DNA of 53,748 bases, counting the filler, from Bilabrum cf. latius (Eukaryota): assembly GCA_965178125.1 (NCBI GenBank). It is 3 parts of 3 records of this genome, joined end to end, with 100 filler letters (N's around TTAATTAATTAA, not from the genome) between each part and the next. Parts side by side here need not be neighbours in the genome. Positions count along the whole stretch, not along the records: positions 1 to 19,562 come from CBCXTV010000050.1; 2 more parts are not named here. One strand, written 5' to 3'. A model generated the notes under the pieces. That model ran no database searches, had not been told where the DNA came from, and was given only the letters and a program-made list of their open reading frames with translations. Below are positions 8,012-19,562 of the stretch, piece by piece; within the stretch, counting starts at the first letter, position 1; each line of letters opens with the position of its first letter. A program made the position numbers and the translations under genes.

Positions 8012-8115
8012 AGAAGAGTGCACGCGAAAACAAGAGGAAAGGAGACCCCCCAAACCCACGTAGTGCGATCCTGGGGGGTACCCTCTAAGGTACTAAGAAT
8101 CCTTCCCCCGAAAAT
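8012..8115 (+). repeat. Left copy of ~105 bp direct repeat
   Basis: AGAAGAGTGCACGCGAAAACAAGAGGAAAGGAGACC...GTAGTGCGATCCTGGGGGGTACCCTCTAAGGTACTAAGAATCCTTCCCCCGAAAAT matches 19455-19562 with 3 substitutions and one short indel. Confidence 0.95.
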
Positions 8116-8304
8116 CGCACTACCTCGGTCCCTGGCGTCGGGGAAAGCGGAAAAAAGGGGAGCACTACCGTGAAAAAATCCTGCATTTTACAGGGAAATC
8201 GGAGCACTACGTGTCAAAAACTGGGGGTTTTTGAGCTTTTTTTTCCAGAAAAACGGCATTTTTTTATGTAAAAACCGCGCGAAACGAGCACTACCGAGCA
8301 CTAC
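8060..8304 (+). promoter_or_regulatory. Putative replication origin: stem-loop plus iteron-like repeats
   Basis: GTAGTGCGAT (8060-8069) pairs with ATCGCACTAC (8114-8123), with inner GGGGG/CCCCC and GTACC/GGTAC stems. GCACTAC occurs at 8117, 8162, 8204, 8288 and 8298. Confidence 0.7.
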
Positions 8305-8813
8305 CTCGCCTCCTCCAGTCGTGTTTCGCATTTTTTTCGCTGGCCGAAAATGTCTCCGAAGGCGCTGCCTCGAGGGGGGTTCCGATGGCTGATTTTGGGC
8401 GTTCGGTTGTCGATTTCGCGTGCATTTCAGGTTGTCGGCGAGGCCTTTTTGGCGTATGTCGCAGGTTCGGATGCCCTCGAACGTCGTGCCTCATGTGGTA
8501 TTCGCCGGTTTCTGATGTTCGAGAAGGCGGTCGGTCGGTCATCCTCTCTGGCAGGCTCCGAAGTGCGTTTGTGATCGTGCTAATTGCAACGCCATGCTTT
8601 CCTTCGTTGGCTTCGAGAATCCTTCCCTCGGAAGCGGTACTACCTCGCCCAGGGCGGCACGAGCTGCAGACTCAGCTGCCTCGGTGCTCATGTGTGTCCC
8701 GTGTCAGCAGTTTCGGTGTTTCGAACAGCAAGGATTCTGGGCATTGCGTGTCGGAGGCAAGTGTTCTATCTTGAGGCATTCCGCGATTCGTCGAAGGATT
8801 ATTTGCGCAAATA

Positions 8814-18180: not shown

Positions 18181-19185
18181 ATGTCAGGGGCGAACGCGAC
18201 TTCGTCAACCTCGAGCACGACCATCCCAGCGGCGAACGCGGCTTCCTCGATGGGATCCCTGACCCCGACGAAGCTTCCCCGACCTCGGCCACGTGAACCT
18301 GCAGGCGCATTCTTGCCCGATGTGCCCGCGCAGGTGGCGGCCTGCACGGCGTGGGCGCCACCGTTTCGTCGACCAGACAGCTCAGCCACTCCGGCGACGC
18401 GCGAGGCGGCAACGTCCACGTGCATCAATCCGTGGACCGCTCTCTCCTGGTATCCGACACCACCGCAGCCGACGGACCCCCCTTCCGACAGGCCTCGCGA
18501 GGTACCGAACCCGAGCTCCCGGCAGCAGCGCAGGCGTCATGCTTGGGGCGGCACGTGGGTGTTCGACGACGCCATTACGCTCAGCGATTGCGGGTCGAGG
18601 GTGCAGATCGACGCGCCGCAGTCGAAGCTCTTGGCGATGGTCGTGCCCCGGAAGTCGGGCCAGTGGATTCCTCGTAGGCTGCGCTCGCGTACGATCTGGT
18701 ATTTGGCTGGGGAGCAGTCGGCCGTGATCACCAACCTCAAGTGCCAGGCCTGCAGTCGGGTCAAGCAGGCGGACAGCTTCAACCCGAAGAGCTTGCGTCG
18801 GGCTCAGTACTCGTTGCTGCATTCCCTGTGGCCCGGCTACATACGACGTACCGAGCGGTCTATTTGGTGCACGCAGTGTGCGGTGGAGGACCAGTTGATG
18901 CAGGGCAACTTTCCGGACGGCTACTGTTTCCGGATCCGCGCCACACTCGAAATTTGCCATCAAGATCGCGTCGCGGCCAGGCTGTTTGCAGTGCACGACA
19001 GTAACGCTCTCTTCGAGCAGATCCCGCTGAGCTCCCATGCGGCCATGGACGTGGCGGAGCAGTTGCGTCGATACTGGCAGGATGCCGTGTCCTCAGACGG
19101 CCAGAGCAACATCTTCCACAGCGACCACGTTTCGACAGACGACGACTCTGAGTTCGCACCGGGCGGACCGGAGAGCGTGCCGTGA
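18181..19185 (+). CDS. Hypothetical zinc-finger protein (CxxC-x38-CxxC), probable paralog of the 11504 ORF
   Basis: CQAC...CTQC after a low-complexity N-terminus; ORF is open from 18121. Confidence 0.65.
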   Translation: MSGANATSSTSSTTIPAANAASSMGSLTPTKLPRPRPREPAGAFLPDVPAQVAACTAWAPPFRRPDSSATPATREAATSTCINPWTALSWYPTPPQPTDPPSDRPREVPNPSSRQQRRRHAWGGTWVFDDAITLSDCGSRVQIDAPQSKLLAMVVPRKSGQWIPRRLRSRTIWYLAGEQSAVITNLKCQACSRVKQADSFNPKSLRRAQYSLLHSLWPGYIRRTERSIWCTQCAVEDQLMQGNFPDGYCFRIRATLEICHQDRVAARLFAVHDSNALFEQIPLSSHAAMDVAEQLRRYWQDAVSSDGQSNIFHSDHVSTDDDSEFAPGGPESVP

Positions 19186-19454
19186 GGGACCGCAGCGACA
19201 GTATCGTCGCTTAGGTGAGGAGCGGGTGCCAATGCTCTTTTGAAAATGGTGCGTCGTACGTACGGCAGGAGCCGTCGGTGGGAGCGGGGCGGATCCTGCG
19301 GGAAGTCGTGGAGACTGAGGGCAGAGACTCTCGGGTCGGTCAGGGTCTCATGTAACGTGCTGTTCACCGCAGAGGTATGTGCGGATCTTGGTGGATCTCT
19401 CGAGGACATGGGTGGCATACCGTTGTGCATCCGTTCCCCGGGGGGGGCGGTCGC

Positions 19455-19562
19455 AGAAGAGTGCACACGAAAACAAGAGGAAAGGAGACCAACCCCCCAA
19501 ACCCACGTAGTGCGATCCTGGGGGGTACCCTATAAGGTACTAAGAATCCTTCTCCCGAAAAT
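19455..19562 (+). repeat. Right copy of the direct repeat/origin; the contig ends inside the stem-loop
   Basis: Matches 8012-8115 and stops at ...CCCGAAAAT, immediately before the expected CGCACTAC. Confidence 0.95.

Follow-up and report, generated by a model that had tools for sequence, protein, structure and literature searches.

The locus described here raises the question of what kind of genetic element combines a rolling-circle replication protein (Rep) of viral appearance, a pair of direct repeats and a transposase gene in a eukaryotic assembly. It lies on the first of three contigs that make up a stretch of 53,748 nucleotides from Bilabrum cf. latius (assembly GCA_965178125.1), referred to below as the window. 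The contigs are joined by N44-TTAATTAATTAA-N44 linkers at 19563-19662 and 37551-37650 (N runs at 19563-19606, 19619-19662, 37551-37594 and 37607-37650), which are artificial and not biological. Contig 1 (CBCXTV010000050.1) corresponds to positions 1-19562. A previous sequence-only reading had delimited a capsid-less unit at 8012-19562, whose end coordinate coincides with the end of contig 1. The answer proposed below, to which we give about an even chance of being right, is that contig 1 holds a member of a widespread family of protist elements, so far uncurated, that join a rolling-circle module, similar to that of the circular Rep-encoding single-stranded DNA (CRESS-DNA) viruses, to a DDE transposase. 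The core of such a family would consist of a divergent Rep, an iteron cluster located 0.5-0.9 kb upstream of its gene and accompanied here by a hairpin, a co-diverged pogo-like DDE transposase and a variable set of small zinc-ribbon-like genes.

The Rep is encoded by an open reading frame (ORF) of 761 amino acids on the + strand (8814..11099), in which the fold and the invariant residues identify an HUH endonuclease followed by an ATPase similar to superfamily 3 (SF3) helicases. The complete HUH and SF3 Rep with the motifs GDSRFGKT and DREWLDNNC announced by the sequence-only reading is thus present. Its first 368 residues are variable, rich in alanine and serine, and include a basic KRRRLRQK stretch; they precede a conserved core of 393 residues, which was modelled with a predicted local distance difference test (pLDDT) score of 95. 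The HUH domain (9918..10430, + strand) comprises motif I (VMLTFHG), E443, H456 and H458 of the HFH motif, and Y506 and K511 of HYYCQAPK. The P-loop ATPase domain (10590..11060, + strand) displays a Walker A motif GDSRFGKT (K631), a Walker B motif IVFDE (D671, E672) and a motif C ICTN (N718). Across 64 sequences sharing 25-53% identity with the query, E443, H456, H458, Y506, K511, G625 and N718 are invariant and Y506 is the single invariant tyrosine of the family. In the same sequences, K631 and D671 reach a conservation of 90% or more, and E672 is invariant in alignment A1 only, one of the two alignments built.

Structural comparisons place both domains among viral replication proteins. The HUH domain folded alone (first 171 residues of the core) gives a pLDDT of 96.8 and the element order beta-alpha-beta-beta-beta-alpha-beta. 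When this model was compared to 48,161 representative chains using VIA-align, the best match was a vientovirus Rep (Z 8.2, 113 aligned residues, rmsd 3.1), and geminivirus (Z 7.3), nanovirus (7.3), circovirus (7.1) and B19 NS1 (7.0) proteins were also retrieved, together with pMV158 RepB (6.3) and, at rank 34, the Helitron transposase (4.9). The first 13 matches listed by Foldseek for the HUH domain alone are all HUH Rep domains, with weak E-values of 1.7e-3 and worse. The full core model performs better in the same program: AAV2 Rep68 (1.2e-7) and vientovirus Rep (1.2e-6) are matched over two domains each among Protein Data Bank (PDB) entries, followed by papillomavirus E1, B19 NS1 and SV40 LTag. 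In BFVD, the best 50 matches listed reach an E-value of 6.6e-15; many are nameless, and those bearing a name are all CRESS, crucivirus, gemini or parvovirus replication proteins. VIA-align scores SF3 and other AAA+ ATPases alike for the C-terminal domain (Z 10-12) and does not discriminate between them; the SF3 label therefore rests on the Foldseek ranking, the motifs and the position behind the HUH domain. In its predicted structure, the protein combines a complete HUH endonuclease of the Y1 type with an SF3-like ATPase, and its fold is closest to that of CRESS-DNA virus Reps.

Primary sequence tells little of this kinship. Searches with the Rep ORF gave nothing in Pfam (E <= 0.1), in PHROG or among PDB sequences, and the profile built from the 64 family members retrieves no Rep among 177,635 PDB sequences. 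When the members themselves were compared to Pfam, only 1 of the 64 gave a weak match to Gemini_AL1_M (E 0.0012). The motif argument by which the sequence-only reading had tied this protein to geminiviruses and genomoviruses consequently fails at the level of curated families. The family is nevertheless a large one: clustering at 50% identity leaves 1,312 representatives at E <= 0.001, of which 866 reach E <= 1e-10; none of the ten relatives listed with their sources carries a functional name. The Rep is a very divergent relative of the replication proteins of small circular DNA viruses, placed outside their curated families by its sequence. As the family is missed entirely by current domain libraries, it deserves a curated profile even on a cautious view of the element.

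The second component is a presumptive origin of replication. Two direct repeats were detected using blastn at 7999..8115 and 19442..19562 on the + strand, with 91% identity over 121 columns (E 7.5e-40), a single 4-nt indel and no third copy in the whole window, in agreement with the pair proposed earlier. Copy 1 is followed by five direct GCACTAC words (8117, 8162, 8204, 8288 and 8298) separated by A/T-rich tracts. This iteron cluster (8117..8304, + strand) spans 188 bp and lies 0.5-0.7 kb upstream of the Rep gene, which supports the earlier claim in so far as the element has iterons of its own. The window contains 11 occurrences of the word, where 3.6 +/- 2.1 would be expected; none of 100 shuffled sequences reaches this count, and 7 of the 11 fall within the two repeat regions. 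Each repeat can also form a hairpin built on a C-run and a G-run (8045..8079 in copy 1, + strand; C6/G6-based 8-bp stem, 21-nt loop), whose loop holds a single inverted iteron GTAGTGC (8060-8066 in copy 1). The inverted words begin at 8060 and 19507, confirming the reported spacing of 11,447 bp. When 8030-8130 is folded as a whole, GTAGTGCGAT pairs with ATCGCACTAC (8114-8123), and this longer structure is more favorable than most shuffled sequences (z -2.6; 2 of 200 shuffles did equally well). The canonical CRESS nonanucleotide was not seen on inspection by eye. The AT skew changes from +0.40 (7400-7999) to -0.32 (8300-8899), switching exactly at the repeat and iteron module; this change of sign occurs although the genes on both sides are on the + strand. 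From these features, we infer that the module functions as an origin.

In order to determine how widely this arrangement recurs, related loci were searched with an alignment of 11 sequences (A2), the more diverse alignment A1 being too variable for that use. Metagenome contigs yielded 18 loci related to the Rep. The same A2-based search found no relative in IMG/VR, and none was found among INPHARED phages or, by tblastn of the Rep core, in the 72,556 plasmid records of PLSDB. The sole match in prokaryote genomes is a 1.9-kb contig of a metagenome-assembled genome, where it has probably been mis-binned. Lineage-specific clusters of 7-9-mers occur 0.5-0.9 kb before the rep start in 4 of the 10 related loci with at least 380 nt of upstream sequence, in addition to the present locus (W1). 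The words differ from locus to locus: GCATCCGCG in L002 (5-6 copies), GCAATAG in L004 (11 copies arranged as a 13-nt minisatellite), ATCCTTG in L006 (4 copies) and (G)TCGCGAC(A) in L018 (3-4 copies). The G/T-rich tracts between the words of W1, L002 and L018 appear similar by eye. In L016, seven GCGCCTCCAYGGAG words against 0 expected are placed between rep and the next downstream gene. In L018, 115 nt of the region upstream of rep recur 2.7 kb further upstream with 94% identity, forming a direct repeat at the contig end.

The third component was overlooked by the sequence-only reading, which had described the genes following the Rep as cargo. An ORF of 534 amino acids (16562..18166, + strand) encodes a pogo/Tc5-like transposase matching Pfam DDE_1 with an E-value of 1.4e-11 and 44.7 bits, for a cut-off of 22. 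N220, D222, E223, D347 and D383 are invariant in 8 sequences and the catalytic triad (D222, D347, D383) is intact. Relatives of this transposase are found a few kb from rep in 3 of the 18 loci (L002, L011 and L014), and their divergence runs in parallel with that of the Rep. The identities for Rep and DDE, respectively, are 44% and 50% between W1 and a contig of 14,535 bp, 49% and 40% between L011 and L014, and 26-37% and 23-28% for the other pairs, so that the closest pairs in Rep are also the closest in DDE. The W1 comparison involves the transposase relative P0158, 50% identical to the protein encoded here, whose longest contig has the same length, 14,535 bp, as that of the Rep relative P0002. 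No convincing terminal inverted repeats bracket the DDE gene in 15400-19562, where only short pairs of at most 21 nt with 75-100% complementarity were found; more distant ones, placed around the whole block, were outside this systematic search. The gene is therefore not marked as a separate transposon nested in the element. As the transposase recurs beside Rep and co-diverges with it, the cargo label is misleading, and the enzyme appears to be a core partner of Rep. As a separate observation, the long DDE-containing ORF of L011 includes, at 3884-4105, a palindromic array of 12-nt units of the CCCAAATCTGG type, which may represent an intron or an insertion.

A second recurrent partner is the basic ORF of 230 amino acids placed directly downstream of the Rep (11504..12196, + strand), which has no Pfam match. 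Relatives occupy the same position directly after rep in L003 (60% identity) and L001 (22-26%). C94, C97, C136 and C139, arranged as CxxC...CxxC, are invariant and are accompanied by a basic RRVQR stretch. Judging from this pattern, the product is probably a zinc ribbon, and its gene is a conserved downstream partner of Rep. Over distant lineages, the Rep with its iterons and the genes of the 230-aa protein and the DDE transposase thus behave like a single unit of inheritance.

The way such a module might operate can be outlined as follows. Rep would bind the GCACTAC iterons and nick near the hairpin by means of Y506. Its helicase would then unwind the DNA and drive rolling-circle synthesis. 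Termination is proposed to occur at the second origin module, 11.4 kb downstream, because that copy lies in the same orientation, and would set free a circle of one unit in length that includes rep together with the zinc-ribbon and transposase genes. The double-stranded form could subsequently be inserted into chromosomes by the DDE transposase. Circle release, integration and the use of 11.4 kb as a unit are extrapolated from this layout. Carried to its end, the proposal would define a new class of eukaryotic mobile element, namely a capsid-less rolling-circle replicon with its own DDE transposase as integrase, in which directly repeated origin modules divide the integrated DNA into segments that Rep can release as circles. 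The rep-bearing segment would then be 8116-19441, and L018 and the 853-aa gene found here and in L016 would represent cargo-only segments. We hold this stronger version tentatively and give it well under an even chance.

A number of observations weigh against the element as outlined, and several concern its right boundary. Of the claim that two repeats bracket a unit, the existence of the second copy is upheld. That copy is, on the other hand, cut off by the end of contig 1: it stops at ...GAAAAT, one base short of where copy 1 runs into the first iteron, so that 19562 is an assembly end and not a natural boundary. The right boundary thus rests on one assembly, and the 11.4-kb unit depends on this truncated repeat. 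The stem predicted by the sequence-only reading does form in each copy, with an ordinary energy that is no better than that of shuffled sequences (z -1.0 and -0.6), and no comparable hairpin beats shuffles at any of the five related places tried (L002, L004, L006, L016 and L018). Of the 10 related loci offering upstream sequence, 6 are devoid of a word cluster, and the iterons of L004 may be nothing more than a minisatellite with a 13-nt period. Terminal overlap indicating a circle was found in 0 of the 18 related contigs, and IMG/VR contains no relative. The presence of P0002 and P0158 on one contig is deduced solely from the equal length, 14,535 bp, given for the longest contig of each. Finally, the genes of contig 1 are all on one strand, including those of the flank, and their co-orientation may therefore be a property of the host genome.

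Public sequencing runs add further points on both sides. Ten runs, distributed over six organism codes and six studies, each contain 81-88% of the words sampled from 7900-17800, and a marine sediment metagenome (X15) has a word share of 0.10. Contigs, not reads, of four runs were compared to 1-19562, and the depth figures obtained are not copy numbers. In X2, X5 and X9, long pieces at least 99% identical span flank and element with few differences. Among the points against the outlined element, their per-contig depths are alike over both parts (151-196, 34-53 and 17-25, respectively); this evenness implies that flank and element belong together in these samples, and it gives no sign of amplification or high copy number. 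Likewise, each of the four runs has a contig that departs from the window's sequence directly after 19440, immediately ahead of copy 2, and continues into unrelated sequence; no contig of X2, X5 or X9 extends beyond 19562. The 30-nt consensus of these loose ends is absent from the window. The contigs of X5 and X9 break within copy 1 (8074-8099). Run X1 displays summed depths of 2-6 x 10^5, with 43,093 contigs matched. Bins at 3919-5877, 9796-10448, 12408-14366 and 18285-18937 reach up to about double depth, and the joints 5839>9824, 9854>10133 and 10278>18500 recur in 3-4 runs. These are drawn from the joints listed, most of which have sides of 23-32 nt, besides 92 further joints and 2,662 loose ends; they hint faintly at another copy, with an internal deletion, at a different place in the genome.

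The behavior of these contigs around copy 2 bears directly on the alternative that survives best, in which copy 2 is a solo origin module of ~140 bp or an assembly branch, and the 11.4-kb distance between origins is functionally meaningless. Such a module sits 250 bp past the last ORF, and the end of the contig within it, together with the loose end after 19440 in all four runs, fits this explanation. In X2, moreover, a full-depth contig (167.5) connects ...8128 with 19386 through 9 intervening letters; from this single joint, the similarity between the copies may extend to ~8128. Copy 2 could then lie in a short loop formed by 19386-19440, copy 2, the 9 nt and 19386-19440 again, which would explain both the assembly stop and the loss of similarity to copy 1 near 8128, with no second rep following. 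Against an assembly branch, the copies differ at ~9% of positions in addition to the 4-nt indel, which shows copy 2 to be a real locus of its own instead of a repeated use of identical reads. Even a solo module in direct orientation downstream of rep would suit rolling-circle termination, and L018 has the same layout. We regard this explanation as unlikely, while giving it real weight.

According to another explanation, contig 1 would be part of an extrachromosomal replicon, a plasmid or virus larger than 19.5 kb with two origin modules, at which the assembly broke. No recognisable host gene is present on the contig, all its genes share one strand, and repeats occupy both its extremities (54-nt arrays at 5-591, origin module on the 3' side). 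The word shares of the ten runs and the nearly identical long pieces of X2, X5 and X9, flank included, are in keeping with a replicon, as is a 25,927-bp contig that provides a protein identical to the 230-aa ORF and a 99% match to the DDE transposase. This contig and that of 14,535 bp probably bear more complete copies of the element. The lead from the 853-aa gene to giant-virus glycosyltransferases, described below, points the same way. Against a replicon stand the 3.6 kb of contig 1 devoid of coding periodicity, its satellite arrays and its low coding density. No capsid or packaging gene was recognized by sequence, and the viral, phage and plasmid collections searched above contain no relative. 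The joints recurring in 3-4 runs suggest a deleted second copy, as in decaying genomic repeats, a weak indication given sides of 23-32 nt. On balance, an extrachromosomal replicon seems improbable. The remaining possibility, that the Rep derives from a past infection by a CRESS-like virus, as an endogenous viral element or domesticated gene, with the neighbors and the DDE transposase being unrelated host genes or transposons and the 120-bp repeat an unrelated dispersed one, agrees with depths equal to those of the flanks, the lack of a recognisable capsid gene, a co-orientation reaching into the flank and the abundance of transposon-like genes on the other two contigs (Pif1-like helicase, RVT_2), yet it is made very improbable by the catalytic residues kept across 64 diverse sequences, by a repeat that holds the Rep's own iteron word and adjoins the iteron cluster, by the recurrence of the DDE and 230-aa genes beside Rep in distant loci with matching divergence, and by iteron words differing between lineages, as expected of co-evolving Rep-origin pairs.

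The remaining genes of contig 1 are less informative, the orphan ORFs having 0-3 relatives. Six ORFs had been attributed to the unit, and those of the Rep, the 230-aa protein and the transposase have relatives elsewhere. The ORF of 443 amino acids (13032..14363, + strand) looks coding only in its cysteine-rich C-terminal third, which contains four CxxC motifs: residues 250-443 have a GC content by codon position of 0.58/0.55/0.76, and periodicity is strong at 13800-14100. It has no Pfam match, no usable ESM Atlas match and no relative in the 18 loci. The 354-aa ORF (18121..19185, + strand), with two CxxC motifs, a third-position GC content of 0.78 and some codon periodicity, has a weak Pfam match to Stc1 (E 0.065) and no relatives in the 18 loci. 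The 174-aa ORF (15466..15990, + strand) is a doubtful gene, with weak codon periodicity, no relatives in the 18 loci and no family match. The three cysteine-rich ORFs share no significant mutual similarity (best E 0.16). An internal tandem duplication of ~500 bp, with copies 88-95% identical, lies between the 443-aa and 174-aa ORFs (14564..15546, + strand). Upstream of copy 1, and outside the unit proposed earlier, is a gene of 853 amino acids (3731..6292, + strand) with strong codon periodicity and no Pfam match, a relative of which is located 1.1 kb past Rep in L016, behind the seven iterons. The protein-language-model comparison of the ESM Atlas gives a lead of 0.90 to giant-virus GT25/GT11 glycosyltransferases with 167 of 256 features shared, under the tool's guide value of 170, and a glycosyltransferase identity is accordingly retained as a lead only. 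The description of the element as capsid-less holds in so far as no capsid family of Pfam or PHROG was found in 18 ORFs of the window or 10 ORFs of related loci, a sequence-based result with which a divergent capsid would be compatible. Contig 1 opens with two arrays (5-193 and 343-591) of a 54-nt tandem unit that includes the palindrome CCACGTTGTGG; they may be a satellite or a further iteron-type array.

The other two contigs provide observations of a different nature. On contig 2, a very long GGT-type simple repeat extends from 19663 to ~22400 and generates giant spurious ORFs in several frames. A complete eukaryotic ribosomal DNA unit follows at 25761-31092, with the small subunit at 25761-27562, the 5.8S at 27816-27969 and the large subunit at 28252-31092. 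Directly after it, the - strand of 31226-35246 contains long ORFs matching a Pif1 2B domain and AAA_19/AAA_30, which may belong to a Helitron-like element or to a Pif1 helicase gene. On contig 3, an open-ended ORF (52738-53748) has a weak match to RVT_2, the copia-type reverse transcriptase (E 0.0072), and an Rfam match to mir-130 on the - strand of 44548-44622, barely over its gathering score (47.0 against 40.6 bits), is probably spurious. The dinoflagellate host suggested by the sequence-only reading is unsupported: no match to the dinoflagellate spliced-leader word was obtained with as many as 3 mismatches allowed, a result that does not in itself speak against a dinoflagellate.

It remains to compare the element with known systems. 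To our knowledge, Helitrons and Replitrons are the only Rep-driven groups of eukaryotic transposons described, and Reps of the CRESS type are known elsewhere from small viruses and from plasmids, mostly bacterial ones. The element shares with Helitrons the nature of a eukaryotic rolling-circle element and the fusion of an HUH domain to a helicase. Helitrons combine a Y2 Rep with a Pif1 (SF1B) helicase (PMC10288648). Their assignment was rejected here, as only Y506 is invariant, the ATPase matches SF3/AAA+ folds and the Helitron transposase reaches a Z of only 4.9. Replitrons are described in the same paper as having a Y1 Rep without helicase, mostly of the HUQ type, with short terminal direct repeats (6 bp in Replitron-1), and as reaching high copy numbers (PMC10288648). 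The present element resembles them in its eukaryotic nature, in a Y1 Rep whose link to CRESS Reps is weak and in direct repeats at or near its ends, and differs by a Rep with both a helicase and an HUH motif, a repeat of ~120 bp and no sign of high copy number. A Replitron was rejected in view of the conserved helicase domain and the ~120-bp repeats. The sequence-only reading was therefore right in assigning the element to neither group.

On the transposase side, the element resembles pogo/Tc5-type DDE_1 transposons by an intact DDE_1 domain and differs from them in that no terminal inverted repeats flank the DDE gene. Teratorn, reported to be a cut-and-paste transposase fused to a viral (herpesvirus) replicon (PMC10175614), offers a precedent for such a composite; the partner here is instead a rolling-circle Rep. 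A literature search that left supplements aside found no description of an element combining an SF3-type Rep with a DDE transposase, nor of this Rep family. The accessible part of a paper on viral insertions in Symbiodiniaceae (PMC9651163), supplements likewise outside the search, contains 0 mentions of single-stranded DNA or rolling-circle terms.

The closest parallels are found with the CRESS-DNA viruses (Cressdnaviricota), which include gemini-, genomo-, circo-, nano- and redondoviruses. As in the present element, their Rep joins an HUH nuclease using a single catalytic tyrosine to an SF3-type helicase at the C-terminus. The nuclease domain described here finds its best structural matches among theirs, and BFVD contains full-length matches. 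Iterons lie upstream of rep in both, here next to a predicted stem of ordinary energy. The Rep described here differs in lacking membership of a curated family, in a nuclease domain of ~170 residues with three extra helices instead of the ~95-120 residues of the matched chains, and in its 368-aa N-terminal extension. The element further differs by carrying a DDE transposase and no capsid gene detectable at the sequence level, and by a presumed unit of ~11.4 kb, CRESS genomes being of a few kb. The pCRESS plasmids are the subject of Kazlauskas et al. 2019 (PMC6668415). They are similar in being capsid-less replicons with a CRESS-type HUH and SF3 Rep, often found integrated. They reside mostly in bacterial genomes (PMC10288648), whereas the present Rep family occurs on eukaryote-like contigs and is absent from the 72,556 plasmid records. 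By analogy, its mode of operation would be nearest to that of a CRESS or pCRESS replicon into which a cut-and-paste transposase had been recruited. It is speculated in the Replitron paper that duplicated Rep-binding direct repeats flanking the rep of a plasmid or virus could have been an intermediate in the origin of Replitrons (PMC10288648), and the layout observed here fits such an intermediate. If the family exists as proposed, it would fill a gap between viruses, plasmids and transposons and offer a testable model of how rolling-circle replicons become chromosomal residents. Should the new-class interpretation prove true as well, the intermediate between plasmid and transposon imagined for the Replitrons would have a living representative in this element.

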